Assembly (NCBI GenBank): GCA_023133595.1
Contig: JAGLWF010000005.1
Span: 29,640 to 93,639 of the forward strand
DNA: 64,000 nt
Direction of reading: 5' to 3'
Source: Nanobdellota archaeon
Lineage (GTDB): Archaea; Nanobdellota; Nanobdellia; Woesearchaeales; WJKV01
The position numbers were made by a program, and so were the translations under genes. Under the pieces are notes generated by a model. It was given only the letters and a program-made list of their open reading frames with translations. It was not told the DNA's origin and searched no databases. Shown in pieces: positions 6,177 to 41,863 of the stretch. How positions within the stretch are numbered: the first letter of the stretch is position 1; the number at the start of each line of letters is the position of its first letter.

Positions 6177-6177
6177 C

Positions 6178-6858
6178 TTAGTTCTTTATTGTCAAATACA
6201 GGTAATACCTGCTCCACGCAGAGTATAATAAAAATACTAGCAACAATATTGATGCAAATACTGCTGAACCAAGAGTAAATGTCCAGCTAGATATTGCAAC
6301 AGCAACAAAAAATATGACTGCCATCAACAGGTATGCTAGCAATACCCTCCACTGAAAAAATGTGGAAAATACATTGAATATTGTCTCTTTAGGTTTCTTT
6401 ATCATGTTTGTCCTAGCAATCGAAGTGAACATGAGATAGAGGAGCCAGAAAATGAATAATAATGGACTTCGCCACACATCTTTGATTGCTTGGATTATGA
6501 AAACAAAGATTATGAACCAAGGAATAAGCCAGATCAATGAAAACTTGAACCATGTTTTCATGTCCTGTGTTCTCCCGACAGTGTACTTATATACAAGACG
6601 CTTGAAGATTGTAAGGTTCACTACTTGCAAAACAATTGCAACTGCTGATAGTAAGATAAAAGATATTATGTACCACGTCCCTGAATTGACTGTCAATGGG
6701 TATGCGTCTGTGATCCTGCCAAAATACATGTAGTAGAATGCTACGATCGCAAAAAATATTAACAGGCAGATCAGATCAAAGAGCATTGCATGGAATAATC
6801 TAACATTAAACGTTTTGAATGATTCTATAAACATAAACCCCTTTTTTTTTACTGCCAT
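6178..6858 (-). CDS. Polytopic membrane protein, about 6 TM helices, unknown function.
   Basis: ORF track. Hydrophobic helices throughout. Lies 1 nt from the flanking gene inside the operon. Confidence 0.55.
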   Translation of the reverse strand: MAVKKKGFMFIESFKTFNVRLFHAMLFDLICLLIFFAIVAFYYMYFGRITDAYPLTVNSGTWYIISFILLSAVAIVLQVVNLTIFKRLVYKYTVGRTQDMKTWFKFSLIWLIPWFIIFVFIIQAIKDVWRSPLLFIFWLLYLMFTSIARTNMIKKPKETIFNVFSTFFQWRVLLAYLLMAVIFFVAVAISSWTFTLGSAVFASILLLVFLLYSAWSRYYLYLTIKN

Positions 6859-6864
6859 TTTACC

Positions 6865-9800
6865 CTATCCTGTCTGATTGCCAAAAGTTCCTGCTCCTGT
6901 CGGCACTGTTGTAGCAGAACTTCCGCCTGCATGATAACCGCTGTGTTCAGCAGCATCTCCAGGAACATAATTTTCTTCAACAATCGGTTGTGCAAACGCT
7001 ATCAATGAACCAAATTCTCCAGATGGTTCTCCATCATCATCTAATATTTCTTCTTTATAACATAATGCAGCCCATTCAACATCAGGAGGACCATAGACAG
7101 GAACATAATCTGAAGATGTGGATCCTTTCTGCACAGCTACATCTGTTGTTCCCTCGATCACCAAACAACTAGAATCACAATAGATTGTATTTGCACAGAC
7201 AGTATACATAATGTTTGTATTCGACGCTCTTAGCATCCAATTGAACTGGTACAACGTACTGCCGTCAGGCATTGTCTCTCTTTCCACCTGCAACCGTTTG
7301 GAAACATCTACATTACCAGCAATATCAAATCCAATCTGCACATCATCAGGGAAATCCTCATCAAGAGTAGCTCTACAAATCAATCTCTCCCATTCTTCTG
7401 GATGAAACCATTCGTTCTCCATCCACCGGTCAACTTCTGCTTTCCACTTTGGACACGCTGCCTCCCATTCTTTATTTATTTTGTCACTATAATATTTTCC
7501 AACACCTGTCGGTCCTCTGATCAGAGTGCCGAGGAATCTCTGGAACCTCTGCCGTGTCTGGATTTTCTTTTCCAAATCTCTTCCTTTCTTATCTTCTGCA
7601 AATTCTGGCGCGACAAATGTGGTCAGATCTGTTTCTTCGCATCTCTGCTGCCCTCGTACTTCATAACACGCCCAGTAATTATACTGGACTTCACCTTCTG
7701 CATCTATTGACGCTGTAGTATAGACCCGTACATTGCTTCCAAGATCAATATTATAATTAGCAAGTGCAATATCACCAGTGTATGTTCCATCCGGCTGTTT
7801 TGTCCTAGTGTAGAGAAGTGAGCTTTCAATAGCTTCCTCTTCTTTATTATAGACAGCACCATCTTTATTCACGTACATTTCATCTCCAATAGAGAATTTA
7901 CCAAATCCTAATCCAGCTCCAAAAGGTTTTAGCTTTGCCTTTAGCTCATCACCATCATGTTTATTAGGTCTCATAAACACAGCAATATCAGAATCTTCTT
8001 TGCCAATCTCTGCAACATAACCAATCTCTTTATCATCCTCAATCTTTCCATTGTAAATCATATTTCCATCATGTATCAGTTTCAGATCAGAAACTTGATT
8101 TTGTCTACTTATTTCATCTGGTGTTGGTGTTAACGCTGTTCCTTCTCTGAGAGCATTATAATAAACATAAGGCGAAGCATACTCGCGCTGCTTTCCTTCT
8201 TCATCCTTGAACTTTCCTTTTGGCACACGATACATATCTTCATTCCGCTGTGTACTGCCCTCTGTAATAACATAATAATTACCAGTCTTTGGATCTTTGA
8301 CTAGTGCTGTTGTTTTTCCAGTCTCGGGATTCACCCACGAATCGACTTTAGTCCATCCTTCATAGCGTGTACCTTTCTTTCCAACATTATTGAAGATGTT
8401 TGTCGCTCCTTCCTTGACAAGAGTGTTTATCTGTCCTGCCACTTGTTTATATTTTCCTGTTCTGATTGCTTTAATGAAATTTATTTTTTCATCATCATAG
8501 ACACCTTGTGCTCCTGCTTTATCCAAATTTGCAAGATATTCAACAAGCTCTGGATTTTTCTGTGCAAGATCAGGATTGTCACTTAATAATTTTTTAGCTT
8601 CATCCTTTTTTCCGCCTGCAATCAACAATGCCAATGCTTGAGATGCTGCCTGATCACCCCCTGTCGCTGCCTGATAACCAAGAGCTGCCACTTCTGAATC
8701 TGTCAACGCCAGTGTAGCTTGCTTCGTGTTTGGATCAATACTATTAATCTTTGCCTGTAGAACACTTTTTGATCTGGTATCCATCATCTGGGTTACTTCT
8801 GCAAGGGTCTTTCCTTTTGTCTGATCAGGAGCAAGGCCCATTGTCTTTGCAGTGGAACGCACACTAATAACTTTGGCTTCCTGGTCAAACTCACCAATAG
8901 ACTGGAATACAGAGAAACCTTTTACACCAGCATCACTCCCTGTTAATTTGATATAATTCTCTCTATACTTTTTATATTTAGCCTCAAACTCTTCTTTTTC
9001 TTTTTTCCAAGCATTTATCTTGGCATAATCAGGCAATGGTTTTTTCAATTCTTCATCGATCTTCGCATCCAGACCATCATAGTAACCTAAATCAGCAGGT
9101 CTAAGTCTTGCTGCAGGTGGAGGAGCAACACCAGCATATGCTTTGCTTATAGCTTCTGCATCAGAAGTTTTAAGGTTTTTCAACATCGCAACACGCTGCC
9201 TGTCAAACTCTGCACGTGCTTCTGCGCCTGTCTTCTTTTCAAGCGCAGCGTCAAATTTTTCTTTAAGGTCTAATTTCTGTGCTTCAGGTAATTCAGCAGC
9301 ATCAATCGCATCCTGGAACTTCTTTATTTCTTGTCTGACTTTTTCTCTTTCTTCCAGATCTTTTGCAGCAGCCTCGAACTTCTTCGGATCTTTGGTTTCT
9401 TTTGCTTTCTCCATCAAAGCAGCTCTTGCTTCTGCCTCATTTGCACCATTCTTAACCATTGCTTTAACAGATTTGTCTATTGTCTTTCGCCGTTTATTGA
9501 CTTCGTTTTTTATTTGCAATGGAGTCTTGCCAACTCTATCAACACCATACCTGTTTGCAAGTTTTTTGTAAATTTCAGCTTCAAAAATCTTAGCATCCCA
9601 CGGAGTAGCTGATCCTCTGGCAGCTCTGACAACATCACCATATTCAGTATCAGTCAATCCTGCCTCGAGTGCATCTTTCTTTATTTTCTCGCGCTTTGCC
9701 AGCTCACTTTTTATCTGGCTATGCGTCTTGCCTTCCAAACTAATGCCATACCCCATGGATGCTTTCTGCTCAAGTTCATGTTCTGCAAGAACTTTCTTTA

Positions 9801-10953
9801 ATGCTGCGAGATTTTTATCCTTTCCACTTTTTTTGAGTGCCTGCCATTTCTCATTCATCCGCGGGTCTTTAGTAGCTGCCAGGATTTTATCTCTGGCATC
9901 ATCTATCTGTTTTTGGTATGCTTTATCAGCTGCCAATGCATTCCGTTTTGCTTGGATTTGTCTATCCAGTGATTTTTTTCTATCCGGATCATCTTCAGCT
10001 TCAGCTTCAATTAAAAGCCGCACAATATCTGCTTCTTGCTTCAATATCTTTTCAAGCTCTTGCTTTTCTTTTGTCAACCTTCGAACTTCTGCGTTGTTCT
10101 TTGCAGCTCGCGCTTCTGCAATCTCTTGTTCCAGCCTTGCAACATCTTTTGCAAGAGCATCTCGCTCTGCAATTTCTTTCGGCGCTCCAAGAGCTGCTTC
10201 ATCAGTTTTGCGCTTATTGTATGTATCTTTTAGTGCTGCAAGCTTTTCTCTTTGCTTTTTCAATTTCGCAGCTTCACTTGTAAGACCTGCTTTTTTAGCC
10301 TGCTCTTCTGCTTTTTCTAGTTCTGTTATTGCAGTATTTAAACCACTGATCGCAGTATCATACTGATATAATTTTGCGTTATCTTTTGCACTTGCCGACG
10401 CTGTTGCAGCTCCAGTTGTTGCAGTTTTAGCTCTTGCTGTTGCTTCTGTTGTTTTCTTTAATTGTTCATCTCGCTTTTTCTTCTCAGGACCAAAATATTT
10501 TGCATTCCCATCAGATTTAATATTATCAGTTACTGTGACTGGTGTAGAATATCCTGGAACTGAATCCTTGAACATACTATCTGCATATTTATTCTTGTTT
10601 TGATTGACAACTCTCACAAATGAAGCATAATCCATATTATCGCCACTATCATCATATTCAAAATACTGCCATCCTCCCCATGATCCAACCCAGACCTGCA
10701 TATATTCAGTACCATCATCTTCCTCAACTCTCCATTGGCTGTATTTTTTCTGTATCTTGCCTTTTGTATAGACAAGATCTCCATCAGTATTGACATACAT
10801 GGTCTCAGCTTCAGCCTCTGTGATAGATTTCTCATTTCCTAGACCAACCCAGTGATACGGTCGTAGATCAACAGCAGAAACAAACACACTGCTAACTAGA
10901 ATAAACACTAGAAAAATCATGATCAATATTGATAACTTGTTCTTCATCTTCAT
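6865..10953 (-). CDS. Giant secreted protein (1362 aa): signal peptide, about 500 aa of Ala/Lys/Glu-rich coiled coil, and a globular C-terminal region ending ...SSATTVPTGAGTFGNQTG.
   Basis: ORF track. N-terminal signal MKMKNKLSILIMIFLVFILVSSVFVSA. Heptad-like AKE-rich region. Start overlaps the upstream gene stop (ATGA). Confidence 0.7.
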   Translation of the reverse strand: MKMKNKLSILIMIFLVFILVSSVFVSAVDLRPYHWVGLGNEKSITEAEAETMYVNTDGDLVYTKGKIQKKYSQWRVEEDDGTEYMQVWVGSWGGWQYFEYDDSGDNMDYASFVRVVNQNKNKYADSMFKDSVPGYSTPVTVTDNIKSDGNAKYFGPEKKKRDEQLKKTTEATARAKTATTGAATASASAKDNAKLYQYDTAISGLNTAITELEKAEEQAKKAGLTSEAAKLKKQREKLAALKDTYNKRKTDEAALGAPKEIAERDALAKDVARLEQEIAEARAAKNNAEVRRLTKEKQELEKILKQEADIVRLLIEAEAEDDPDRKKSLDRQIQAKRNALAADKAYQKQIDDARDKILAATKDPRMNEKWQALKKSGKDKNLAALKKVLAEHELEQKASMGYGISLEGKTHSQIKSELAKREKIKKDALEAGLTDTEYGDVVRAARGSATPWDAKIFEAEIYKKLANRYGVDRVGKTPLQIKNEVNKRRKTIDKSVKAMVKNGANEAEARAALMEKAKETKDPKKFEAAAKDLEEREKVRQEIKKFQDAIDAAELPEAQKLDLKEKFDAALEKKTGAEARAEFDRQRVAMLKNLKTSDAEAISKAYAGVAPPPAARLRPADLGYYDGLDAKIDEELKKPLPDYAKINAWKKEKEEFEAKYKKYRENYIKLTGSDAGVKGFSVFQSIGEFDQEAKVISVRSTAKTMGLAPDQTKGKTLAEVTQMMDTRSKSVLQAKINSIDPNTKQATLALTDSEVAALGYQAATGGDQAASQALALLIAGGKKDEAKKLLSDNPDLAQKNPELVEYLANLDKAGAQGVYDDEKINFIKAIRTGKYKQVAGQINTLVKEGATNIFNNVGKKGTRYEGWTKVDSWVNPETGKTTALVKDPKTGNYYVITEGSTQRNEDMYRVPKGKFKDEEGKQREYASPYVYYNALREGTALTPTPDEISRQNQVSDLKLIHDGNMIYNGKIEDDKEIGYVAEIGKEDSDIAVFMRPNKHDGDELKAKLKPFGAGLGFGKFSIGDEMYVNKDGAVYNKEEEAIESSLLYTRTKQPDGTYTGDIALANYNIDLGSNVRVYTTASIDAEGEVQYNYWACYEVRGQQRCEETDLTTFVAPEFAEDKKGRDLEKKIQTRQRFQRFLGTLIRGPTGVGKYYSDKINKEWEAACPKWKAEVDRWMENEWFHPEEWERLICRATLDEDFPDDVQIGFDIAGNVDVSKRLQVERETMPDGSTLYQFNWMLRASNTNIMYTVCANTIYCDSSCLVIEGTTDVAVQKGSTSSDYVPVYGPPDVEWAALCYKEEILDDDGEPSGEFGSLIAFAQPIVEENYVPGDAAEHSGYHAGGSSATTVPTGAGTFGNQTG

Positions 10954-11702
10954 TCTATCTCAAACTCGAATGTTTTTTCATCTTTGACAAATGGAGTGAT
11001 ATCCGTCGCTCGGATCTTCAGGCAGTATGTTCCTCGCAAGTCAAACATTGACACTGGTTCTCTGAAGGTACGGGTGATTGTTTGATACTCACTGTCTTCG
11101 ACCTCGATGGTTGCAGCAGTGCTGTATTTGTTGTTAAACCAAGTAATCTTCTTCCCTAACGGATCTCGCAGGTCAATATTCTCTAAAAACCCGATAAAAT
11201 GCCGTCCATCTTCAAAATCAACAGTCATTGTATCCAACTCGTGGACTATCTCAATGTGATCTCCTACTTTTGTGAACTTGAAATTTCTGATATTGAATGC
11301 AGCACCCATATCCTTGAATCCTTGCTCAATCTCGTCTTCAAGCGCTCGCATTTCTTTTTCATCCTCTGGAATGATTTCCATTAGTTCAGGTTCTTCTCCT
11401 ATGATTGTCTCTAAAAATTTTGCTTCTCTTATCTTTGCCAATTCTTCCTCGGTAATATCCTTCTGTGTGAAGTTTAATGCTAATGCCAAGACAATAATAA
11501 GTATGACAATGACAATCACACATAACCAAAACCGTTTATGTGCAAACGTGCGGGTATGTGCTTCGTGCACAGGCGGCAGCCGTTTATACCGCGGTGGTTG
11601 CGGAGCTTTTCTCGACGGCATTCTTGGACCTGGAGTTAGCTTTAACAATTCTTTTCTTCTCCTTTCCAGTTCTCTTTTGTATCTATCAAACTCGTCTGCC
11701 AT
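10950..11702 (-). CDS. Single-pass type II membrane protein (250 aa): basic, Pro-rich cytoplasmic N-terminus, one TM helix, acidic extracellular domain.
   Basis: ORF track. TM segment FWLCVIVIVILIIVLALALNF. Translationally coupled on both sides. Confidence 0.55.
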   Translation of the reverse strand: MADEFDRYKRELERRRKELLKLTPGPRMPSRKAPQPPRYKRLPPVHEAHTRTFAHKRFWLCVIVIVILIIVLALALNFTQKDITEEELAKIREAKFLETIIGEEPELMEIIPEDEKEMRALEDEIEQGFKDMGAAFNIRNFKFTKVGDHIEIVHELDTMTVDFEDGRHFIGFLENIDLRDPLGKKITWFNNKYSTAATIEVEDSEYQTITRTFREPVSMFDLRGTYCLKIRATDITPFVKDEKTFEFEIE

Positions 11703-11703
11703 T

Positions 11704-14700
11704 TTAACTTGTTAAATTTCCAGCACCTGCAGGCACTGTTGTTGAAGTGTCCTCTGCAAGAGGAGCAGCTTCACCCGCTTCTCTTTCCCACTTCTCTAAT
11801 TCATCAAATGCGTCTTTGCATTGATCACTATCTTTATCTGTGAAACTTTTGAAATCAACATCAAACTTGATCGCATTCTCGACAAATTCGTCCCACGACC
11901 ATGCAAGCATTGCAGCATCAAACACACCGCACGCAAGTACCCATGCATTCTTCTCAACATTCAATAGTTTAGCATCAACCTGGTTGCTCTCTGTACATTG
12001 TTCAATGCTCTCAGCAGTATTGAACTGCGTTATCTTTTTTCCGCCAGCATAAGCTTCCTGCTGCATCTTGACCTGGTTATCAAAATTAGTGCACAACGCA
12101 TCTCGCGAAGCAGCAACTATTCTTCCTGGCAATTCTTTAATTATATCACGCGACATGCCTGCGATCTGTTTTGCCAGCATAAAGCCAGGGAATAACTGCA
12201 TCACAGGACCCCAGAAGAACAGACATTCATTCTCTGCATGCGCAATGTCACAAGCAGCAGTGCTGAAGCCTGCTTTTGCATTGTCAGTGATACATCGTGC
12301 ATGGATACACTGCAATTGCCTGTACTTGTTCAGGTTATAGACAACACCCGGAAGGCATAAGCAATCAACAGCAACAATATAATTATCCATTGGATTCAAC
12401 CTTGTCTCGAAATTAATCTCTTTCAGATAAGAAGTGTCGATCTGTCCTACATCTGCCATTGACACATCAGCAGCACCAGTAACATCAGTGACAGCAAGAC
12501 CAAACAGACTTCCAAGGCTGCCCAGGATACCTCCATCATCTTTCTTTCCAGTGCTAGGTTTCTTCTCTGGAGGCGGTTCTGCAACAGCTTCTGTCGGCTG
12601 TGTTGTTCTTGCTTCCATCCGGGTTTCATCCTCTGATTTCATCTGCGATGGAACTGGGGCTCCAGGTTCTCCGACTCCAACTTTTCCAAGGAAGCTTGCG
12701 ACAGGCTTATCAAAAGCTTTTGGTATGCTCTGTATCCCAGTGATCCCAAATCCTTGGCTGCACTGGTTGCATAATATGAATGCACAGACTCTTCTTACAA
12801 ATCCGCCAATATCATCTTCTTCTTTGCCCAAAGATTTGCCGCCGAATAACGCGTCTGTGAATTCAAACTTATCCGGTTTGATACCGCGCGCTTTTGCAGC
12901 TTTTTCATATGCTTCTTTTGTGTAGAAATAATCTTTATCATTCGGCCAGATTGTTTCTTTCAGGACACGCAGATAACAATCAAGTGTCAGGAAACCCTGC
13001 CATAATTCTTCACCAGCACCAGTAGAAGTCCATTCAACAATCATTGAAGCTGTATAGACAATAGGTTTCATATCCTGTACAACAGTATATATCCTCGAGA
13101 TCTCTTCTCCTATCTTACATATCTTTCTTAGTGTGTCTAGCCAACCTTCGATCTTTGTGACATACTCAAAGAAGTTTGTATTCACGCGCTTCTCAATATC
13201 GTGGAGTTTCCTGATTACATTGTCTCCTGGATCTCCGATTGGAAGATTGTACAATTCAATTGATGCTGTCACATTATCCATCTCAGGGTTAAGGAATACT
13301 GTGTTTCCTCTTGCAATAAGAGAATATATTGTGCAGTTGAATTCTATATTCTCAAGCTTTGACGTAGCTTCATCCAATAATATTTCGAACACGAGAAGGG
13401 AATCATCCATTTCTTTTCCAATGATGTAAGGATTTTGAGTATCCGTGCCTGCATACAATACAGTATCAAGACCAGTGCACTGAGGAGACTTATCAATAAC
13501 CTCAACCATATCAGAATAATCAAAGTGCAGTGGAACAAAGACTTTTGTTGGAATCTTTGTCGAGATCCTTCGATCCAATTTCTGCGGGATCACACTTCCA
13601 ACTGTTATTGCAACTTCATTCGGCACTGTTGTGATATCAGAACTGTAGACAACAACAGGATAAGAAAACACACCGTCATTTCCAGCAAGATCAAAGACAG
13701 TGAAGTCAACATTGCCCTGGGTATAACTTGTGACCAGGCCAGAGACTTCAAACTCGCAGATAAAATCATCACCAGACATTGCACATGTCCCATTGATAGG
13801 ATCTATTTGAGTTGATATCGCGCTCACATCTGCAATCGCATTCCTCACTCCATTTATTTCTGTTCCAGTAACATAAAATCTTAATGGCTCTCCAACGCCT
13901 GCGTTTGGTGCAAGTGCTGATTGTGTTACATTCGCAATCACAGGGTCGGTAAGGTCAACTTCGAACGACTGGCTTTTTGTTGCCAGCTGTCCGAACCTGT
14001 CGCGCACATTGACCACAACTGTCTTGCTTCCTTCTGGTCCAGCAGCATCAAGATTGTACCAGTAACATTTGCTCTCATTCATATCGCACAGGTCTGCGAC
14101 TTGTCCAGAACTATAGACTGGATTTATTGCCCGCAGGTCAGCAAGAGTCTGCGAAGTCTCAAATCCAACACCAGCATCTGCAATCTTAGCAATTAAAGTA
14201 TTATCAGTGCTTCCAAAGTAATTTCCATTCTCGGTCTCAATAGCACTGATAACAGGTTCTTCTGAATCAACACTGACAGATATTGTGAATGGACTATTCA
14301 ATACATTTCCAGCAGTATCAGTTGCAGTCACTGTTCCGCTAAAACCAGTTGTCTGCGCAGTCACAGTCGGCACTACACTCCATCTGCATCGATGCACACC
14401 GCCAGTTTCTGTGCAAGTGCCAGGTGCATTTGCTCCTCCACCAAATGCAGTGATATCTGCCCGTACATCATCAAGCGCAACATTCTCAGATATGTCAATC
14501 TCAAGCATGAATGACATTGAACCAACAGTGACACTTGCCACAGGAACATTGTTCAATGTCAGTCTGGCATCCACTAACTGCGGCTCATCCACATCAATTG
14601 TGAGTGCCGAGGATGTCTGTGCCAATTGCAGATGACCCAAACGATCGAATACCCGCGCATAGTATACATAGTCACCTGACGAAGTGGGTGCTTCGAGAAC

Positions 14701-15297
14701 AATTGTATCGTCCAATTCGCATTGGTCAATACCTTGTATTGTATAGGTTTCTGATGCAACTATGTTTAGGAAATTCGCATCGTCTGAGATTTCAACACCT
14801 GCAATTCCTGCACAATGACCAGAATCTCCGATTTCATCATCTGCAACAATATGTGCAACAAGATCACTGCCAGATGTTCTGTTTACTGCAAATGAAGTTA
14901 CTGTCGGTGCACTGCCATCAACAACATAAGCTTCTGATTGAGTGACACCACTGTAGGAAATGTGATAATATTCTGTTCCTTCCTCTAACGGAAGGACAAG
15001 AGATAAAGTACATAAACTGTTGCTTCCCTCTGGGACACATGATTCAAAAGAGATATTATGGAACTTGACAGCAGTAGGATCTACTCCTGCCTGCGCGATC
15101 TTGATATCAATATAGACATTTGTGTCTCTTGCATCAATCACTCTATGGATGTCATCGCTTCCATAGATGCTGACTTCTGTTATCAGGCCTGCAAAAGTAG
15201 AACTTCCCTGTGCAAATGCAAAGCTTGCATAGAACGGCAAAGTTATGATTAAGAAAATCATCAACATGCATCTACCATATCCTTTTTTCATTTCCAT
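11704..15297 (-). CDS. Giant secreted protein (1197 aa) with repeated Ig-like beta domains, a Cys-rich module and the C-terminal tail ...STTVPAGAGNLTS.
   Basis: ORF track. Signal peptide MEMKKGYGRCMLMIFLIITLPFYASFAFA. The Cys-rich CLCLPGVVYNL...C module aligns with CGCVSGVRGHL...C in the 1..4200 protein. Overlaps the 15288 gene by 10 nt. Confidence 0.7.
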   Translation of the reverse strand: MEMKKGYGRCMLMIFLIITLPFYASFAFAQGSSTFAGLITEVSIYGSDDIHRVIDARDTNVYIDIKIAQAGVDPTAVKFHNISFESCVPEGSNSLCTLSLVLPLEEGTEYYHISYSGVTQSEAYVVDGSAPTVTSFAVNRTSGSDLVAHIVADDEIGDSGHCAGIAGVEISDDANFLNIVASETYTIQGIDQCELDDTIVLEAPTSSGDYVYYARVFDRLGHLQLAQTSSALTIDVDEPQLVDARLTLNNVPVASVTVGSMSFMLEIDISENVALDDVRADITAFGGGANAPGTCTETGGVHRCRWSVVPTVTAQTTGFSGTVTATDTAGNVLNSPFTISVSVDSEEPVISAIETENGNYFGSTDNTLIAKIADAGVGFETSQTLADLRAINPVYSSGQVADLCDMNESKCYWYNLDAAGPEGSKTVVVNVRDRFGQLATKSQSFEVDLTDPVIANVTQSALAPNAGVGEPLRFYVTGTEINGVRNAIADVSAISTQIDPINGTCAMSGDDFICEFEVSGLVTSYTQGNVDFTVFDLAGNDGVFSYPVVVYSSDITTVPNEVAITVGSVIPQKLDRRISTKIPTKVFVPLHFDYSDMVEVIDKSPQCTGLDTVLYAGTDTQNPYIIGKEMDDSLLVFEILLDEATSKLENIEFNCTIYSLIARGNTVFLNPEMDNVTASIELYNLPIGDPGDNVIRKLHDIEKRVNTNFFEYVTKIEGWLDTLRKICKIGEEISRIYTVVQDMKPIVYTASMIVEWTSTGAGEELWQGFLTLDCYLRVLKETIWPNDKDYFYTKEAYEKAAKARGIKPDKFEFTDALFGGKSLGKEEDDIGGFVRRVCAFILCNQCSQGFGITGIQSIPKAFDKPVASFLGKVGVGEPGAPVPSQMKSEDETRMEARTTQPTEAVAEPPPEKKPSTGKKDDGGILGSLGSLFGLAVTDVTGAADVSMADVGQIDTSYLKEINFETRLNPMDNYIVAVDCLCLPGVVYNLNKYRQLQCIHARCITDNAKAGFSTAACDIAHAENECLFFWGPVMQLFPGFMLAKQIAGMSRDIIKELPGRIVAASRDALCTNFDNQVKMQQEAYAGGKKITQFNTAESIEQCTESNQVDAKLLNVEKNAWVLACGVFDAAMLAWSWDEFVENAIKFDVDFKSFTDKDSDQCKDAFDELEKWEREAGEAAPLAEDTSTTVPAGAGNLTS

Positions 15298-17447
15298 TGT
15301 GGCTGTATCAGGCTGCCTTTCTTCTTCGACATCTCGTCAATATTTCCAAGACGCGCAAGCTCTTCGTGATTTGTCGGTTTCTTTGATTTTAGCACAAAGA
15401 ACAATAATTCATTTTTCTGGTCAAGCTCTGCTTTCTCAACATGCCAGTTATTGTTCAGCCCAGCATTAAGCGCAGCTCCTCCCAACGGCGCGGGTTTTAC
15501 TTCAACTTCTTCTAGTGTTACATATTCGTCTCCAAACTTCTTTGTTGCTTCTGGAATAACAACTCCAGTATTATCAAAATATCGCGCGTCAATAGTATAA
15601 TCTCCAGGCACAAGTTCCAGATCATTCACTTTAGTGTCTTCATCAAAGATCATGGTTGTGCTGAATGGTTCCTCCCACGGATCTTCTGAAACTTTTGCAA
15701 CAGTGACATAGACAAATGCATCTTCTAAATCATCATGCTGCTGCAATAACTGAAGATATTGCTGATAGTTCACACTTCCATAATCAAACCTGTCAAATTG
15801 CTCGACCATTTCTGGGGATCTGACCTGGATGTTTGTTTTCTTTGTCACAATCTTTGGAAGTTCAGCATTAAAGGTATAGACTTGTCCGTATTTTGTATTC
15901 AATGGGAAATTATGATTAAAGTATCCTTCTTTTGACAGTTTCAACACACCACCATCGCAGATAGGGAATTTGCCGACATATTCTCCACCAGCATCAGTGC
16001 TTCCAATGTAGACACTATCCTCTCCACAGTAGAATCTTACCTGCACATCGCTCACTATCTTGTTGCTGTCATCTTTTGTATTGATCGTGATATCACCAGA
16101 CAATCTTTGGTTTGGATGACCAAATAAATTTGCTCCACCAACACCAAGCTCGACAACATAAGGAACACGCAGTTCTCCTGCAAGGAGTGGTTCATTGTTT
16201 CTCACATTAGCCTCCATCGCAAACATCAATGAGTAACCATCTCCATTGAATGCATACGGGTCCCGCACTTCAACAACAACAGGATACGATAAGTCGTAAT
16301 AGAAACGGTACGACTGCGTGAAAATATCAATTATCTCCTGGAATGATCCACTGTGCTCCTCTGGCCTGATCAATTCTCCTGAACTAGGAGTGATGTCAAA
16401 ATGCATTGGCCAGTTCAGGTAGAACATGTTCACATCTAGTTCTTCATAATCCTTTTCAGGCGGAAGAACATTGAAAACAAAACCATAATGCACTCCTTGC
16501 CTGATATCAAAACCAGGCCTGTCATCTTCTGGATACGGATAGAAATTATGAGTTCTCGGAACAGTTATCATGTTGACATACGTTGTCAGTATCTGTTTTA
16601 TCAATTGTTCAACATTAAACTTGACCCACATGACTTTCTGCATTCCCATGTCAGCCTCTGCTATCGGAGGAAGCCCTTCCTTCTCAACACGACCGTACAA
16701 TGAGATCAGGTTCATTGTGTTATATTCTAGGAAACCACCTTCTGCCTGTGCATTGACAATCTCAACACCCATGTTAAACATCTGTCGCAGATTTACTTGA
16801 TGGTTTATGTAGAAATCTTTGAAATCATAGGATAATTCTCCTCGTGTTACTCGCAGTGGATAAGAAAGCGTGACCCGGACGTCGTTTGCAGTTATTGCTG
16901 TCTTTGAACCGATTGATCCCAACTCTTCAATCTCATAACCTTCCTCTCTGAATGCTGTCATTGCCAGTAAACATTCCCTTACATTGGTCTCGACATAACG
17001 ATCAATCATATCCTGCATCTGGACAATTGTCGGTGCTTTGCCAGAGAATAAACAATCTGTGCATCTATTGCTGCTTTTCAGGTAATGCCAGTACGGAACT
17101 TTCAATCCTCCTGGCGTGAACTCAACACCATCAGACTCAGTCGGATCATACTGGAAATCAAAAACAGTTCCTCCAGTGAGCTCTGGATCATCTAATGAAA
17201 TCCATCCGCCCTGCCGGCCCATAAGTTCCAGTGCTTCTTTGCTGACACGCCTTCCGCACTCTTCAACAAACAAAGAAATTGGCTGCAGTCGGACAGGACC
17301 AACAATCACTCTTTCTTTAGCTTCTTCTGTTATCTTTGAAGGTGCAGTTGCAATGAAATATATGACAATAGCTGCGACAATTAAGAGAATTAAACCTATA
17401 ATTATGTAAATAGTCACTTGTCCCTTCTTGTCATTGCTGTTAAGCAT
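15288..17447 (-). CDS. Large protein (about 719 aa) with a class III prepilin-like signal: MLNSNDKKGQVTIYIIIGLILLIVAAIV. Paralog 2.
   Basis: ORF track gives 15288..17492. The internal Met at 17447 is preferred because TATA boxes at 17512-17554 would place the transcription start inside the longer extension. Shares FVEEC...QGGWISLDD...LKVPYWHY with paralog 1. Confidence 0.65.
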   Translation of the reverse strand: MLNSNDKKGQVTIYIIIGLILLIVAAIVIYFIATAPSKITEEAKERVIVGPVRLQPISLFVEECGRRVSKEALELMGRQGGWISLDDPELTGGTVFDFQYDPTESDGVEFTPGGLKVPYWHYLKSSNRCTDCLFSGKAPTIVQMQDMIDRYVETNVRECLLAMTAFREEGYEIEELGSIGSKTAITANDVRVTLSYPLRVTRGELSYDFKDFYINHQVNLRQMFNMGVEIVNAQAEGGFLEYNTMNLISLYGRVEKEGLPPIAEADMGMQKVMWVKFNVEQLIKQILTTYVNMITVPRTHNFYPYPEDDRPGFDIRQGVHYGFVFNVLPPEKDYEELDVNMFYLNWPMHFDITPSSGELIRPEEHSGSFQEIIDIFTQSYRFYYDLSYPVVVEVRDPYAFNGDGYSLMFAMEANVRNNEPLLAGELRVPYVVELGVGGANLFGHPNQRLSGDITINTKDDSNKIVSDVQVRFYCGEDSVYIGSTDAGGEYVGKFPICDGGVLKLSKEGYFNHNFPLNTKYGQVYTFNAELPKIVTKKTNIQVRSPEMVEQFDRFDYGSVNYQQYLQLLQQHDDLEDAFVYVTVAKVSEDPWEEPFSTTMIFDEDTKVNDLELVPGDYTIDARYFDNTGVVIPEATKKFGDEYVTLEEVEVKPAPLGGAALNAGLNNNWHVEKAELDQKNELLFFVLKSKKPTNHEELARLGNIDEMSKKKGSLIQPQWK

Positions 17448-17511
17448 AGTAGAAGGACTAAAGTGTTCTCTAGCACCCCTTCTCATGTTCACCTTTTTGG
17501 AGGATTCAGCC

Positions 17512-25425: not shown

Positions 25426-28029
25426 TTATGCGTGCCCCCGAACCATCTTCCAAATCTCCCTGATCACAAAGATAGACACTGCGATCAGGATCACAAAACC
25501 CCAATCGTAGAGATTAAGAGGCACTGTCCTGAAGAACTGGTTCAGTGGAGTATAGATTACTGCGATCTGCAGGAAAAGGGATATGATAACTGCATACCAT
25601 AATTTCTTATTTGCCCATACACCGACCTTAAACAATGAATGATGCAGTGATCTGCAATTAAACACATGCACCAGTTGGAACATCACTAGTGTTGTGAATG
25701 CCATTGTCCGTGCATAATCCATCTGCACTGCAGGCTTGTAGAGCCAATAAATTCCAAGAGTGCCAATACACATTATAATACCAATGATGATTACTCTCTG
25801 CAGGCCATGATTCCCAAGGATCTTTGTCTCTTTTTTTCTCGGTGGACGTTCCATCACACCTGGTTCTTTTGGGTCCACACCCAAAGCAAGAGCAGGAAGC
25901 CCATCAGTGATAAGATTCATCCATAGGATCTGGATTGCGATCAATGGATAACCAATCTTCATCAGTACACCTAAGAAAACTGCAAGAACTTCGCCTGCAT
26001 TGCACGATAATAAGAACTCAACAAACTTTTCTATGTTGTCATATATAGTACGTCCTTCTTCAACAGCATTGACAATAGATGAAAAATTATCATCAGTAAG
26101 TATCATATCAGAAGCTTCTTTTGAGACGTCTGTTCCAGTGATACCCATTGCAATGCCAATGTCAGCTGCTTTCAATGCAGGCGCGTCATTCACACCATCA
26201 CCGGTCATTGCAACAACATGACCGTTCTTCTGCAGAGCTTCTACAATCCTCATCTTATGTTCAGGGTCTACGCGTGCATAGATAGCAATCTTATCAACAA
26301 CATCAGCAAGATTTCCCATCTTGTCCAGTTCTTCCCCTGTAACAGCACGCCCTTCAATACCTAATTCTTTTGCAACAGCTTTTGCAGTCTCTATGTAATC
26401 ACCAGTTATCATGACAACCTTGATCTTTGCAGTCTTACATTTTGCAACAGATGTTATTGCTTCTTTCCGTGGCGGATCAATCATGCCCTGCAGTCCGACA
26501 AATATCAAACTTTCTTCTGTGACTTTTCCAAACTTCACTTCTTTATACGCAAAACCAAGAACACGCAATGCCTGCCTTGCAAATATCTTATTCTGTTCAA
26601 GAGCTTTTGCTTTCAGGTCACGCGAAAACACGCGCGCCTCTCCATCAATCAGCACTTTTGTGCATTTTAGGATAATCACATCAGGCGCACCTTTTACTAA
26701 TGCAAACTTTTTTCCTTTAATCTTGTGCACTGTTGTCATCAGTTTCCGTTTAGAATCAAATGGAAGCTCTTCAATACGCAGACTAGTCTTTTCCAGGTCA
26801 ACTTTCACAAGTCCTTTTTTTGCGGCACTCACCAAAAGCGCAACTTCTGTAGGATCTCCAACAACCTCTTCACCAAGAGAACCATTATTGCACAACACCC
26901 CAATCTTCAATAATTGTTTCAGGCTCGGACTGTCTGCACTGAACTTTCCTTCTGTGCTATAGCCGTCGCCAGTGACAGTTAGCTCTTTACCATCGACAAA
27001 CACTTTTGTCACAGTCATCTCATTGTGCGTCAATGTCCCAGTCTTATCAGAACATATCACAGTTGTACATCCTAGTGTCTCAACAGACGGCAAAGTACGT
27101 ATCAATACATTCTTCTTTGATAATTTCTGCATGCCTAAAGATAGTGTGATCGTGACAACAGCTGGAAGTCCTTCTGGAACAGCTGCAACAGCAAGACTGA
27201 TAGATGCTAGAAAGATTTCCATCAATGGATATCCAGAAGAATAACCAGTAAAAAAGACAATACCACAAATGAGAATCACAAACACTGCAAGCAATTTAGA
27301 GAATCGTTTTAATTTCAATTGCAATGGTGTTAGCGGAGATTTTGCAGATTCAATTGACTTTGCAATCTTTCCCAGCTCTGTTTTCATTCCTGTTTCTGTG
27401 ACAATAGCTTTTCCATGGCCGCGAGTGACAATAGTTCCTGCATACAACATGCTTGCGCGATCACCCAGTGCGCAAATCTTTTCCATTGCATGTTCTGTCT
27501 TATCATTAGGAACACTTTCCCCAGTAAGAGAAGCTTCTTGCGTCTGTAATGCTATAGCTTCGATAATACGAGCATCTGCTGGAATCTTCCCCCCCTCTTC
27601 AATGATAAGTATATCCCCAGGCACAATTTCTGTTGCATCGATCCGTTCCTGCGAACCACTGCGAAGGACAAGAGCTTTCAGCGAAGCTAACTTCTGCAGG
27701 GCTTCGATCGATTTCTCAGCTTTGAACTCTTGATAGAAACCAAGCACTGCATTAAGAATCAAAATAATAGCAATCACAGTCATATCAATATATTCTCCAG
27801 TGATCCCAGAGATGACTGTGGCAAATATCAGGATCCAGATCAGGAAATCCTTGAACTGTGAAAGAAATATTTGTAGTGCAGAAATATGCTTCTCTCTCTT
27901 GATCTCATTCTTGCCATACTTCTCCAACCTTTCTCTTGCATCTTCCTCAGAAATCCCGCTCACGCTGCCATTGAGTTCACTGATTACCTTGACAACAGGT
28001 GTCTTATAGTATTCCATTTCACCTCTCAT
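25426..28029 (-). CDS. P-type cation-transporting ATPase, P2A-like Ca2+-ATPase.
   Basis: Motifs TGES, DKTGTLT, PEGLP, GDGVNDAPAL and about 10 TM helices. The real start may be the Met at 28017. Confidence 0.85.
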   Translation of the reverse strand: MRGEMEYYKTPVVKVISELNGSVSGISEEDARERLEKYGKNEIKREKHISALQIFLSQFKDFLIWILIFATVISGITGEYIDMTVIAIILILNAVLGFYQEFKAEKSIEALQKLASLKALVLRSGSQERIDATEIVPGDILIIEEGGKIPADARIIEAIALQTQEASLTGESVPNDKTEHAMEKICALGDRASMLYAGTIVTRGHGKAIVTETGMKTELGKIAKSIESAKSPLTPLQLKLKRFSKLLAVFVILICGIVFFTGYSSGYPLMEIFLASISLAVAAVPEGLPAVVTITLSLGMQKLSKKNVLIRTLPSVETLGCTTVICSDKTGTLTHNEMTVTKVFVDGKELTVTGDGYSTEGKFSADSPSLKQLLKIGVLCNNGSLGEEVVGDPTEVALLVSAAKKGLVKVDLEKTSLRIEELPFDSKRKLMTTVHKIKGKKFALVKGAPDVIILKCTKVLIDGEARVFSRDLKAKALEQNKIFARQALRVLGFAYKEVKFGKVTEESLIFVGLQGMIDPPRKEAITSVAKCKTAKIKVVMITGDYIETAKAVAKELGIEGRAVTGEELDKMGNLADVVDKIAIYARVDPEHKMRIVEALQKNGHVVAMTGDGVNDAPALKAADIGIAMGITGTDVSKEASDMILTDDNFSSIVNAVEEGRTIYDNIEKFVEFLLSCNAGEVLAVFLGVLMKIGYPLIAIQILWMNLITDGLPALALGVDPKEPGVMERPPRKKETKILGNHGLQRVIIIGIIMCIGTLGIYWLYKPAVQMDYARTMAFTTLVMFQLVHVFNCRSLHHSLFKVGVWANKKLWYAVIISLFLQIAVIYTPLNQFFRTVPLNLYDWGFVILIAVSIFVIREIWKMVRGHA

Positions 28030-38369: not shown

Positions 38370-39473
38370 TTATAAAGCTTTCGGTTTGAGCCTTTTGAGG
38401 AATTCCTGCTTGAAAGTGCTGAATTCGTTGTTTTTAATGGCTGTACGGGCATCTTCTATCATCTTCTGCATAAAATGCAGATTATGGATGGTTGCCAGTC
38501 TCAGACCCAAGGTCTCTTTGACAAAGAGGAGATGTGCTACATACGATCTTGAGAAATTCTTGCAGGTATAGCATTCGCAGCCTTCTTCGATCGGACCATA
38601 ATCGCGTTTGAATGAAGAGATCTTTATCGGCCCGTTCCCTGTGAACAATGTTCCCCTTCTTGCGTTTTTTGTTGGATAGACAGAATCAAAAATATCACAG
38701 CCGATATCAATCGCTTCAAGAATTGTATCAGGTGAACCAAGACCCATAAAATATCTTGGCTTATCTTTATCAATATGCGGCAGCTGCCAGTTTAATGCCT
38801 GCACTGCCTGTTCTTTTGACTCTCCAATTGCCAAGCCACCAAACGCAACACCGTCAAGTTTCATCTCATTAATTTTTTTCGCACTTTTTTCTCTGAGATC
38901 CTTGAAAGTTCCTCCCTGCGTGATCCCAAACAATAGTTGTTTTTCATCAGTATATTTTTTTGCGACAATACAACGCTCTGCCCATGCATGCGTTCTCTTT
39001 ACCGCGCCTGCAATATAATCATAATCCCGTCCATAATGCGGAACATCGTCAAGGCACATTGCAACATCTGCACCCAAACCATGCTGTATCTGGATAGATT
39101 TTTCTGGAGTCAATGTCTGCTTCACACCTGAGAATGGATCCCTGAATCTTATTGCTCTATCATTCAGGTCGACAAGCATTGTCTTGCTCAGAACTTGAAA
39201 ACCACCGCTGTCAGTGAAGATGCATCTGTCAAAGTTCATGTACTTGTGGATGCCACCACCCTGTTTAATAATATCAATCCCTGGTCTTAATGATAAGATA
39301 AATGCATTGCAGATGATTGCATTGACATTCATCCTGTACAATTCTTCTGGCAGCATATTCTTGACTGCGGCCTTAGTGCCGACTGGCATATAGAAAGGAC
39401 TCTCTACTTTGCCGTGCTTTGTATGCAAGACACCGCAACGTGCCCCCCCTGATTCTGCCTTTAATTCAAACAT
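38370..39473 (-). CDS. tgt: tRNA-guanine transglycosylase (QueTGT family, archaeosine-type).
   Basis: FYMPVGTKAAVK, TDSGGFQV, Zn site CECYTCKNFSRSYVAHL. Start at Met 39473 is preferred over ORF-track 39611, with a TATA at 39497-39506. Confidence 0.8.
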   Translation of the reverse strand: MFELKAESGGARCGVLHTKHGKVESPFYMPVGTKAAVKNMLPEELYRMNVNAIICNAFILSLRPGIDIIKQGGGIHKYMNFDRCIFTDSGGFQVLSKTMLVDLNDRAIRFRDPFSGVKQTLTPEKSIQIQHGLGADVAMCLDDVPHYGRDYDYIAGAVKRTHAWAERCIVAKKYTDEKQLLFGITQGGTFKDLREKSAKKINEMKLDGVAFGGLAIGESKEQAVQALNWQLPHIDKDKPRYFMGLGSPDTILEAIDIGCDIFDSVYPTKNARRGTLFTGNGPIKISSFKRDYGPIEEGCECYTCKNFSRSYVAHLLFVKETLGLRLATIHNLHFMQKMIEDARTAIKNNEFSTFKQEFLKRLKPKAL

Positions 39474-39617
39474 GGATGGTTTTAGAAATAGGCAGTTTAT
39501 ATAATTTGTCACATTTCCCTCAAAAATCACAAAATTGTGATTTTTGGGGCCCAAAATACCCAAAGGGTATTTTGTTGTATCAAAAAACATATAAAGACAG
39601 AAAATGTTCAAGGTACC

Positions 39618-40520
39618 ATGAAAAGAGGATTGATAGTATTGATTTTGATTCTTATGCTTGTTCCAATCTCTATAGCATCAGACGAATACTATCTGCCTGG
39701 AGAGGAGCCAGAACAACCAACTGTTCAAGAACAAGCTCCAGTTGTATCAACAACAGCACAAGAAAAACAGATAGTGGTTGATAACTATTACCAAATAATA
39801 GATCTATCAAAGGCAGGATTAAATTTCTGCAGAAAAAAAGAGCACGCGTCTGCAATAGAAAAATTGAATGAAGCGCACGAGCTTGCAAATGATCTCGAAT
39901 ACGTTAACAGTGCATTTAAGAGATTGACTACTCTCTTGAAAGTCTGGATTTTATGTGCCAGTTACCAGGAAGAAAGTGATGATCAGGTTGATTATATCCT
40001 AGGAGCTGGAAGAACAACAGAAAGTGCAATGGAAAAAGCAGAGGCTTATATCCAAGCCCACAATATCCGCGCTGCCCAGATGTTTTTTATCACAGCTGGT
40101 TCCTGGGAAAAGATGAGGTACCGGGGAAGAAATCTGGAAACACCTTATGATCAAAAATATACTTGCGAGATGGAACTGTATTGTCTTGAAAAAGCAAAAG
40201 AGCTTGAGTTTCCGCAGGCAGACGCAGCACTCAACAAACTGGCATCGTCAGGAGAGTGCGAAGGTTTCTCAGCAGTTGCTCCAGAAGAACAAGCACCAAT
40301 AAGAACAGAAGAAGAGCAGGAAATATTTGAAGAGCTGCTTGAACCAAAAGCTGAAGAAGTAAAACCAGAACCACAAGAACCAACAGTAGAAGTTGAAGAA
40401 AAAGTACCAGCACCGACAGAATCAAAAAAGCTTTCACTTCTCTTTGCTATAATATCAATCTTTGCGATCATTTTTATTATCTGCGCAGTCATTCTGATTT
40501 TAAAGAAAAAGTATTCTTAA
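39618..40520 (+). CDS. Secreted, C-terminally TM-anchored surface protein with a Glu/Pro-rich linker.
   Basis: Signal peptide MKRGLIVLILILMLVPISIA from the internal Met at 39618. C-terminal LSLLFAIISIFAIIFIICAVILILKKKYS. Confidence 0.6.
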   Translation: MKRGLIVLILILMLVPISIASDEYYLPGEEPEQPTVQEQAPVVSTTAQEKQIVVDNYYQIIDLSKAGLNFCRKKEHASAIEKLNEAHELANDLEYVNSAFKRLTTLLKVWILCASYQEESDDQVDYILGAGRTTESAMEKAEAYIQAHNIRAAQMFFITAGSWEKMRYRGRNLETPYDQKYTCEMELYCLEKAKELEFPQADAALNKLASSGECEGFSAVAPEEQAPIRTEEEQEIFEELLEPKAEEVKPEPQEPTVEVEEKVPAPTESKKLSLLFAIISIFAIIFIICAVILILKKKYS

Positions 40521-40523
40521 GGA

Positions 40524-40594
40524 TGCGCCGACCGGGAATCGAACCCGGGCCAGACCCGTGGCAGGGGTCTATTGTACCACTCAACCACCGGCGC
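40524..40594 (-). tRNA. tRNA-Gly(GCC).
   Basis: Manual cloverleaf GCGCCGG-T-G-GTTG...GACCC-CTGCCAC-GGGTC...CCGGG-TTCGATT-CCCGG-TCGGCGC-A. Anticodon GCC, discriminator A73. Confidence 0.8.
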
Positions 40595-40643: not shown

Positions 40644-41588
40644 CTATTCAGGCGCTTTTATCTGGCCTTCTACTGTGATGATTGCTGAAGGTTTTGCTTT
40701 TGTCTCGACTTTTATCCTTCCTGTTGAATCTGCAGTGGTTGTTATTTCTGCTTCAAGCTCTGTTCCGCTCGGATCATAGACTTTGATTATGACTTCTGAA
40801 TCAGGTACAAAGATCCCAAGCGATGAGACTTGTCCTCTTTCATTCACAAAGATGTCATCACCTTCAACATATTCAGAAGCATCAAAGCTTTGTGTGATAT
40901 CATCGTAAGTTGTTGGGTTGAAGCCTAATTCCAGTTCTGTATTGTCTGGAATACCGTCACCATCACTGTCTGCTTTCAGTGGATTTGTACCAAGGGCAAT
41001 TTCAAGTGCATCTATCAATCCGTCCCCGTCAAAATCATCAAGCGGAATGTTCAATGTTGTTGAGACATAATCATTGAATGCTGCAATCTCTTCTTTGTCA
41101 ATAATTCCGTCACCATTTGCATCAATCAGATCAGTCAAAGGTGTTTGTGATTCATCTTCAGGAGTCTCTGGATCGTCAGCAGGAACAGGATAATATTTTT
41201 TTGTCTTTGGATCAGGCACTTTCTTGTATTTTGGCGGTTCCTTTTTTGGCGGTTCTGGTATTGGTTCTAGTTTTGGTAGTTCTTCTTTTTTAATTTTTTC
41301 AGGAACTTTCAGGAATATTTTTCCTAGATGTTCATATTGAACAAACGGAACCTGTTTTATCACACCGCGCATCTCTATGACTTCTCTTCCAGGAACAATC
41401 ACAGATTCGTACTCTTGCGCAAAAGCAGCTTCAAAACCAAGCAAAATTCCGCCTCCGATCGGAAGAGCGCTCAATGCTTCCATGATTGAATCTGTTTTTC
41501 TCTGCTCTGCATCTGCCTGTGCAAACACAAGACTAGAACATAGTATAAACATCAGCATGAACGTAATTAGCTTCTTCATCATCACCAT
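40644..41588 (-). CDS. Secreted protein with dockerin-like / EF-hand-like Ca-binding repeats, a Pro/Lys-rich linker and a C-terminal beta-domain.
   Basis: Signal peptide MVMMKKLITFMLMFILCSSLVFA. Repeats DANGDGIIDKEEI, DFDGDGLIDALEI, DSDGDGIPDNTEL. Confidence 0.7.
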   Translation of the reverse strand: MVMMKKLITFMLMFILCSSLVFAQADAEQRKTDSIMEALSALPIGGGILLGFEAAFAQEYESVIVPGREVIEMRGVIKQVPFVQYEHLGKIFLKVPEKIKKEELPKLEPIPEPPKKEPPKYKKVPDPKTKKYYPVPADDPETPEDESQTPLTDLIDANGDGIIDKEEIAAFNDYVSTTLNIPLDDFDGDGLIDALEIALGTNPLKADSDGDGIPDNTELELGFNPTTYDDITQSFDASEYVEGDDIFVNERGQVSSLGIFVPDSEVIIKVYDPSGTELEAEITTTADSTGRIKVETKAKPSAIITVEGQIKAPE

Positions 41589-41633
41589 TTATCGACAAAG
41601 AATTCTCCTATATAAATTTAATGAAAAAAAGAG

Positions 41634-41706
41634 TGGGTCCACCCGGATTCGAACCGGGGACCTACGCCGTGTAAGGGCGTTGTCATAACCACTAGACTAT
41701 GGACCC
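41634..41706 (-). tRNA. tRNA-Val(UAC).
   Basis: Manual fold GGGTCCA...ACGCC-CTTACAC-GGCGT...CCCGG-TTCGAAT-CCGGG-TGGACCC-A. Anticodon TAC. Confidence 0.8.
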
Positions 41707-41708
41707 AA

Positions 41709-41863
41709 TGAGCCCGAGGGGACTTTCATAGAAACAAAAGGGTTTTGGATTAAAAGTTTTCTGCTTCTGTTTTGAACCCCTGACCACTGGCTGTCTTAGT
41801 CAACTCTGATACCAGAGCGTGGACATATAAGACCAGCGCTCCACCAGACTAAGCTACGGGCTC
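41709..41863 (-). tRNA. Candidate tRNA (anticodon UAU, Ile-like) with two introns: ~33 nt at 37/38 in the anticodon loop and ~48 nt in the T-loop.
   Basis: 5' exon GAGCCCG-TA-GCTT-AGTCTGGTG-GAGC-G-CTGGT-CTTATA, 3' part A-GCCAG-TGGTC-AGGGG-TTCAAAA...[48 nt]...CCCCT-CGGGCTC-A. All four stems pair only if both inserts are removed. Confidence 0.5.

Follow-up and report, generated by a model that had tools for sequence, protein, structure and literature searches.

A predicted exported DPANN protein with a putative Ca2+-binding cassette of EF-hand-like and TSP3-type loops

Introduction

The 64,000-nucleotide stretch of contig JAGLWF010000005.1 considered here (positions 29,640 to 93,639 of the forward strand; Nanobdellota archaeon, Woesearchaeales, assembly GCA_023133595.1), which we refer to as the window, is archaeal DNA with 39 % GC (guanine plus cytosine) and encodes on its reverse strand a protein of 314 residues in which three Asp-rich loops follow one another in tandem. 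The start of the window is occupied by part of the gene for a much larger protein, hereafter the giant, in which one further loop of the same type is found. A sequence-only reading of this DNA had described the loops as dockerin type I or EF-hand-like modules and proposed that the secreted giant proteins are assembled through Ca2+-dependent interactions of the dockerin-cohesin type. The analysis presented below arrives at a different assignment. Judged by profiles and alignments, the three loops form a cassette consisting of one EF-hand-like loop-helix and two tandem 22-residue repeats of the TSP3_bac (bacterial thrombospondin type 3) family, carried by a protein that is predicted to be exported.

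Architecture of the 314-residue protein

The protein corresponds to the open reading frame (ORF) at 40644-41588 on the reverse strand and belongs to a very small family. When 5.8 billion clustered proteins were searched, a single full-length relative was found, P0002 from "Candidatus Woesearchaeota archaeon" (67 % identity), besides P0001, an NCBI hypothetical protein from a "Nanoarchaeota archaeon" metagenome-assembled genome that is 100 % identical; P0001 is annotated with 312 residues, starting at the second Met pair and being 2 residues shorter than the 314-residue ORF. Scans of a genome collection and of metagenomes for further members of the family returned one TSP3 segment from Parcubacteria and nothing more. 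The gene and the parts of its product are as follows, in window coordinates.

40644-41588, reverse strand: coding sequence of the 314-residue protein, predicted to be secreted and to bind Ca2+; stop codon at 40644-40646 (ORF list, homologues P0001 and P0002)
41520-41588, reverse strand: predicted Sec-type signal peptide, residues 1-23, with MKK, a hydrophobic core and a VFA-Q junction (hydropathy 1.7-2.15 over residues 1-25)
41298-41519, reverse strand: N-terminal region, residues 24-97, with the semi-hydrophobic stretch ALSALPIGGGILLGFEAAF (strongly conserved in P0002)
41139-41297, reverse strand: Pro/Lys/Glu-rich linker, residues 98-150 (14 Pro, 12 Lys plus Arg and 12 Asp plus Glu in 53 residues)
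41088-41123, reverse strand: loop 1, DANGDGIIDKEE, an EF-hand-type loop with a 13-residue helix (EF-hand hidden Markov models (HMMs) on the segment, match to 2JNX, AlphaFold2 (AF2) model)
40971-41036, reverse strand: TSP3_bac repeat 1, residues 185-206, loop 2 with the tail IALGTNPLKA (best Pfam stretch, covering profile positions 1-22 of 22)
40905-40970, reverse strand: TSP3_bac repeat 2, residues 207-228, loop 3 with the tail LELGFNPTTY (second and third TSP3_bac stretches, alignment)
40647-40907, reverse strand: C-terminal beta-rich domain, residues 228-314 (AF2 strands at a predicted local distance difference test score (pLDDT) of 50-76; very conserved in P0002)

The N-terminus reads as a signal peptide, and the pattern of MKK, hydrophobic core and VFA-Q is kept in P0002, which agrees with the earlier description of the protein as secreted and suggests that it is exported. 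Two other kinds of N-terminus were rejected, a lipoprotein signal on account of the Leu at -1 of the conserved Cys and the lack of fit to a lipobox, and a class III (pilin) signal because no G/A/S cleavage residue stands ahead of the hydrophobic core. The protein has no C-terminal membrane anchor, and its mature part is free of cysteine, the single Cys sitting in the signal peptide.

Residues 24-97 gave no family match in Pfam or NCBIfam. The linker that follows differs in length between P0002 and the 314-residue protein and has a pLDDT <50 in the full-length AF2 model, and behind it comes the Ca cassette proper, residues 151-227, 77 residues with a net charge of -17. Modelling of the full-length protein with AF2 from a 3-sequence alignment was unusable (pLDDT 36), and the other values given here are from the model built on a 32-sequence alignment. 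In this model residues 156-226 have a pLDDT of 83-95 with a short helix behind each loop, and TSP3_bac repeat 1 reaches 91-95. Loop 1 is flanked by helices at residues 151-155 and 165-177 (pLDDT 74-91), the entering helix being about 5 residues long and the exit helix 13, while the helices behind loops 2 and 3 have 6-7 residues each.

The C-terminal domain (residues 228-314) has no Pfam match, and comparison of its sequence with the PDB returned only noise. A Foldseek comparison of the AF2 model with PDB structures had no match better than E 0.12, the matches listed including Ig-like, CBM and CnaB-type folds. An exhaustive HMMER search in which the last 89 residues served as query returned the protein itself and 14 very large, apparently surface-type proteins, with short and compositionally biased matches that align 30-50 query residues to tandemly repeated units; one of the 14, P0089, has MG2, Big_13 and NPCBM_assoc matches and another has PPC matches. 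The modelled strands, with weak support from these matches, suggest that the domain is possibly an Ig-like beta-sandwich.

Calcium loops and their assignment

The three tandem loops noticed by the sequence-only reading are present as DANGDGIIDKEE (residues 156-167, nucleotides 41123-41088), DFDGDGLIDALE (residues 185-196, nucleotides 41036-41001) and DSDGDGIPDNTE (residues 207-218, nucleotides 40970-40935), all on the reverse strand. They are three copies of the pattern D-x-[DN]-G-D-G-x-x-D-x-x-E, spaced by 29 residues from loop 1 to loop 2 and by 22 residues from loop 2 to loop 3. Each has the full EF-hand-style set of oxygen ligands at positions 1, 3, 5, 9 and 12 with Gly at position 6, and the five ligand positions are unchanged in P0002; from these complete ligand sets in both proteins the loops are predicted to bind Ca2+. 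The strict 12-residue pattern occurs at only four sites in the six-frame translation of the window, namely these three and the one in the giant. Residue shuffles gave mean expectations of 5e-5 sites in the 314-residue protein and 1e-4 in the giant, and a chance origin of the loops is therefore excluded.

TSP3, which had been named beside dockerin as a family to look for, was found. The Pfam model TSP3_bac (PF18884; gathering cut-off 25) scores 41.2 bits in 2 stretches on the whole protein and 47.7 bits in 3 stretches on the segment of residues 137-233. Among 85 database matches with E <1e-3, PF18884 is missing from a single one, which is neither P0001 nor P0002. Outside these two full-length relatives, the matches align to residues ~150-230 only, and many belong to the OmpA family. 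When loops 2 and 3 are aligned with 30 TSP3_bac proteins, the common pattern is D-x-D-x-D-G-x-x-D-x-x-E followed by G-T-[ND]-P, with a period of 22 residues, and D49, D51, D53, G54, E60, D71 and D79 (numbering of the segment of residues 137-314) are invariant. A profile of this alignment, run against the PDB, ranks Staphylococcus aureus Bap (7C7R_B, E 1.5e-6) and an OmpA-family protein (5WTL_A, E 5.2e-6) first, with lanmodulin, polcalcin and calmodulins next; no dockerin is found among the best 60 matches.

Loop 1 has a different character. It matches the canonical 12-residue EF loop (D1, D/N3, D5, G6, a hydrophobic residue at 8, E12) and lies in a helix-loop-helix in the AF2 model. Two EF-hand models detect it on the excised segment, EF-hand_5 at 28.0 bits (cut-off 25.9; 22.7 on the full protein) and EF-hand_6 at 25.6 bits (cut-off 25; 20.9 on the full protein). 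EF-hand_1 stays below its cut-off on both the full protein and the segment, and the pair model EF-hand_7 reaches 10-12.6 bits against a cut-off of 30. A single-sequence search of the PDB places the Entamoeba Ca2+-binding protein CaBP2 (2JNX) on top at E 4e-7, with dockerins appearing only at E 0.14-0.9. NCBIfam adds sub-threshold local matches to the TSP3-containing Myxococcus proteins CglD (35 against 400 bits) and MtsD (29 against 800 bits). Of the earlier label "dockerin type I / EF-hand-like", the EF-hand part stands for loop 1, loops 2 and 3 are TSP3 loops, and the dockerin part falls away. Repeats of the TSP3_bac type are already known, and surface proteins of other archaea also have TSP3_bac stalks (for example P0020 from Thermoplasmatota); what is new is the two-member DPANN family and its combination of domains.

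The giant protein and the calcium pump

The second protein drawn into the earlier proposal lies at the edge of the window.

1-4200, reverse strand: N-terminal 1400 codons of the giant, the rest lying beyond the window start (translation; predicted secreted)
28-63, reverse strand: single Dx[DN]xDG loop DVDGDGVISASD, residues 1380-1391 of 1553 in the giant (pattern search, translation)

On the 96.8-kb source contig (L002:11977-16638) the giant has its full length of 1553 residues, and the loop is located ~160 residues ahead of the true C-terminus. The sequence-only reading was right that the giant has a loop and slightly off in placing it, since DVDGDGVISASD is found at nucleotides 63-28, 3 nucleotides away from the 60-25 given before. 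It is followed by TLVPYGNKRIQSHQLSFNF. No second loop or duplicated segment is found in the full 1553 residues, and no other Dx[DN]xDG site in the 5828 residues of the seven co-directional cluster proteins. The only family matches of the giant are Ig-like and fn3 fragments, and the genome-collection and metagenome scans found no relatives of its C-terminus. The loop is probably an independent, isolated Dx[DN]xDG Ca2+ site that would stabilise a local loop. Isolated motifs had been put forward at the outset as a ground for abandoning the dockerin proposal, and for the giant the proposal is refuted on that ground. Paralogy of the 314-residue protein with any other ORF of the window was considered and rejected (all E >0.2), the loop itself being the only likeness.

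The giant belongs to a cluster at 1-17492 (-) of seven tightly packed and partly overlapping genes for proteins of 734, 1197, 250, 1362, 226, 659 and 1553 residues, with essentially no Pfam assignment. The 734-residue protein starts with K-K-G-Q-V-T and the 659-residue protein with K-R-G-Q-V-T, each followed by a hydrophobic helix, and these starts resemble the class III signals of archaeal type IV prepilins. Sec-type signal peptides are predicted for the three largest proteins, and 5 transmembrane segments for the 226-residue protein. Together these genes may specify a surface appendage or an adhesion system of the DPANN cell. The ~23 kb that separate it from the gene of the 314-residue protein are filled by housekeeping genes.

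Among the genes of the window is a P2-type P-type ATPase at 25426-28029 (-), which exceeds the NCBIfam cut-offs of both the SERCA-type model TIGR01116 (717 bits against 703) and the PMCA-type model TIGR01517 (520 bits against 507), confirming the Ca2+ pump named by the sequence-only reading. This is a common housekeeping function encoded 13 kb from the 314-residue protein, with no evidence of linkage.

Interpretation and alternatives

We consider it likely, with a probability of about 0.7, that the 314-residue protein is an exported, lineage-restricted DPANN protein that has a structural or adhesive role in the cell envelope and is stabilised by Ca2+, its TSP3/EF cassette not being a dockerin. 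From the N-terminus the parts would be arranged as a Sec signal peptide, a conserved N-region, a Pro/Lys-rich linker, the acidic 77-residue cassette and the C-terminal beta-rich domain. In the Ca2+-rich surroundings of the cell, binding of three Ca2+ would neutralise and order a segment that with its charge of -17 would otherwise repel itself, and the ordered cassette could form a rigid spacer by which the C-terminal beta domain is held at a distance from the other parts. The spacer role is modelled on the TSP3 repeats of OmpA-family proteins, Bap and thrombospondins.

Several points weigh against this proposal. Binding of Ca2+ is predicted from the ligand pattern, just as cleavage of the signal peptide and localisation are predicted from the N-terminus, and a family of two members makes arguments from conservation weak. 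Because neither the N-region nor the C-terminal domain has an assignable family, the words "structural" and "adhesive" are drawn from the architecture alone. The TSP3 repeats of OmpA reportedly need an intra-repeat disulfide for Ca2+ binding (Dai et al. 2017, Cell Calcium). There is no Cys in the repeats described here, and affinity or behaviour may differ. The disulfide is not a defining feature of TSP3_bac in Pfam, and most of the aligned relatives are also without Cys.

In the sequence-only reading, dockerin-type modules would bind cohesin-like domains with Ca2+ and in this way assemble the giants into a surface complex. Dockerins are indeed built from the same 12-residue loop plus helix, all the proteins concerned appear to be exported, and the 13-residue exit helix of loop 1 together with the distance of 29 residues between loops 1 and 2 would make a two-helix pair geometrically conceivable in the model; in the giant, the loop has Asp at 12 and Ser at 9, comes closer to a dockerin half-site and draws weak Dockerin_1 scores of 12-14 bits. 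However, Dockerin_1 (PF00404; cut-off 22.9) remains far under its cut-off in both proteins, with 11.9 bits (E 0.26) on residues 137-233 and no report at E<=1 on the full 314-residue protein, and 12.0-13.9 bits on the giant, where the match is to a half-site (profile positions 35-49 of 57). A dockerin module of two ~22-residue segments, each with loop and F-helix, was found neither in the 314-residue protein nor in the giant, whose single loop runs into a non-helical stretch containing Pro and Gly. Dockerin structures rank behind EF-hand and TSP3 proteins with non-significant E-values, loops 2 and 3 have the G-T-N-P tails, 22-residue period and Glu at 12 of TSP3_bac, and the two proteins share no further sequence similarity, their genes standing ~23 kb from each other with housekeeping genes in the interval. 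In at least 16 unrelated structural contexts a Dx[DN]xDG loop coordinates Ca2+ in almost the same way, having evolved convergently and mostly outside the cell (PMC3123361), and the loop alone is therefore no proof of a dockerin. Nor did the search for partners succeed: Pfam Cohesin has no match in the five larger proteins of the giant cluster at E<=10 or the two small ones at E<=0.01, in the 327-residue neighbour described below at E<=1 or in ten further neighbours at E<=0.001. Without a Cohesin match in these proteins, and with a lone loop in the giant lacking a second segment, assembly of the giants by dockerins and cohesins is unsupported and very unlikely. Docking might also be imagined in a form analogous to dockerins and outside their family, the protein being tethered, through its C-terminal beta domain or the cassette, to an unrecognised receptor domain of the giants or of the host cell, within an apparatus for the attachment of the episymbiont; this we hold to be very improbable.

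A Ca2+ switch or sensor, for example one that shifts the protein between a soluble and a self-associating form as described for S. aureus Bap, or a surface Ca2+ buffer, would be another use for the same cassette, and the best PDB match of the alignment profile is the very Bap region with such motifs (7C7R_B). Loop 1, a canonical EF-hand loop with Glu at 12, is typical of regulatory sites, and the SERCA/PMCA-type pump in the genome shows that the cell manages Ca2+. Set against this are the presence of only one EF-hand-like helix-loop-helix, with the EF-hand_7 pair model well under its cut-off, and the general argument that sites of this type are normally saturated by the Ca2+ outside the cell (PMC3123361). 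No amyloid-prone or effector domain is recognisable with Pfam or NCBIfam, and the pump, encoded at a distance of 13 kb, has a common housekeeping function. A switch or buffer is unlikely. The loops could lastly be Asp-rich low-complexity sequence with no metal role, in a region that is very acidic and adjoins a low-complexity linker, and this view is effectively refuted by three full 12-residue patterns where shuffling leads one to expect 5e-5, by a TSP3_bac score above the cut-off, by ligands that are invariant in P0002 and by a confident AF2 model of the region.

The value of the assignment to TSP3 is modest and descriptive, and it has little importance by itself. It corrects a tempting mis-annotation, as Dx[DN]xDG loops are not identifiers of dockerins, and nothing points to a cellulosome-like assembly system in this archaeon. 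With a bacterial-type TSP3 spacer in a two-member orphan family of DPANN proteins, the cell surfaces of these episymbionts, which are poorly understood, gain a further element predicted to depend on Ca2+. Should the 314-residue protein prove to act in host attachment, ethylenediaminetetraacetic acid (EDTA) or Ca2+ would provide a simple handle on attachment.

Genomic surroundings

The gene of the 314-residue protein has as neighbours transfer RNA (tRNA) genes and genes for the ribosomal proteins L1, L10 and L11, Tgt, ScpA, MutL and FtsZ, and a functional link through gene neighbourhood was rejected on the basis of this company. On its Woesearchaeota contig the gene of P0002 adjoins the same L1/L10/P1 genes, and likewise a convergent gene for a membrane protein of 327 residues whose product is 65 % identical to its counterpart in the window. 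This counterpart, at 39537-40520 (+), has an N-terminal signal or transmembrane segment, a Glu/Pro-rich acidic stretch and a C-terminal transmembrane anchor; it received no family assignment.

The gene is placed between two tRNA genes on the same strand, tRNA-Val(TAC) upstream (41633-41706, reverse strand) and tRNA-Gly(GCC) downstream (40524-40594, reverse strand). The downstream tRNA-Gly(GCC), together with a tRNA-Gly(CCC), is kept at the homologous Woesearchaeota locus (L001). One candidate control element is found between tRNA-Val and the start codon.

41609-41619, reverse strand: TATA-box-like element AAATTTATATA, ~26 nucleotides upstream of the ATG and preceded by the T-run after tRNA-Val (read by eye)

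The position of AAATTTATATA, ~26 nucleotides before the ATG and after the T-run behind tRNA-Val, suggests an archaeal promoter belonging to the gene itself and an mRNA with a short leader or none.

Directly upstream of tRNA-Val lies what appears to be a tRNA-Ile(UAU) gene interrupted by two introns (41709-41863, reverse strand), one of 33 nucleotides after anticodon-loop position 37 and one of ~48-50 nucleotides in the T-loop, the borders being approximate. It is missed by ARAGORN with introns allowed and by the Rfam tRNA model; when the two inserts are cut out by hand, ARAGORN calls tRNA-Ile with the anticodon TAT. The tRNA-guanine transglycosylase at 38370-39611 (-) scores 440 bits with the bacterial queuosine-type Tgt model TIGR00430 (cut-off 307) and 143 bits with the archaeal archaeosine TgtA (cut-off 350). 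A bacterial queuosine-type Tgt would be unusual for an archaeal genome, and horizontal acquisition is possible.

Relation to known calcium-binding systems

Type I dockerins of cellulosomes resemble the proteins described here in the Dx[DN]xDG loop with its helix (F-hand), in their extracellular location and in the tandem duplication of the loop. They differ in having Asp at position 12, where the loops of the 314-residue protein have Glu, and in the HMM scores of 11.9-13.9 against 22.9 bits. The long packing helices of dockerins are replaced by TSP3 tails in loops 2 and 3, and instead of one pair of loops there are three in the 314-residue protein and one in the giant.

EF-hand proteins (PF13202, PF13405 and PF00036) such as CaBP1 and CaBP2 of Entamoeba histolytica (1JFJ and 2JNX) and lanmodulin (6MI5) share with loop 1 the ligands, Gly6, Ile8 and Glu12, as well as a helix on each side of the loop in the AF2 model, and they are the best single-sequence matches in the PDB. 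In contrast, the entering helix of loop 1 has only ~5 residues, the protein is predicted to be extracellular, and the EF-hand HMMs pass on the excised segment only.

The N-terminal region of S. aureus Bap (7C7R; E 1.5e-6) likewise belongs to a secreted surface protein and bears two TSP3-like loops in a row, although the similarity extends over ~47 residues only, and Bap is a Gram-positive wall-anchored protein of more than 2000 residues whose other domains are absent here.

Bacterial TSP3 repeats (PF18884; the OmpA-family protein 5WTL, CglD and MtsD) offer a further comparison. The 314-residue protein departs from them in having two repeats only, with an EF-hand-like loop in front, in its DPANN host and in the flanks of the cassette, an orphan N-region and a small beta domain, neither of which is OmpA, VWA or another known partner. 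What it has in common with them is the period of 22 residues, the loop followed by G-T-[ND]-P and the predicted use of an extracellular, acidic, Ca2+-binding spacer between other domains.

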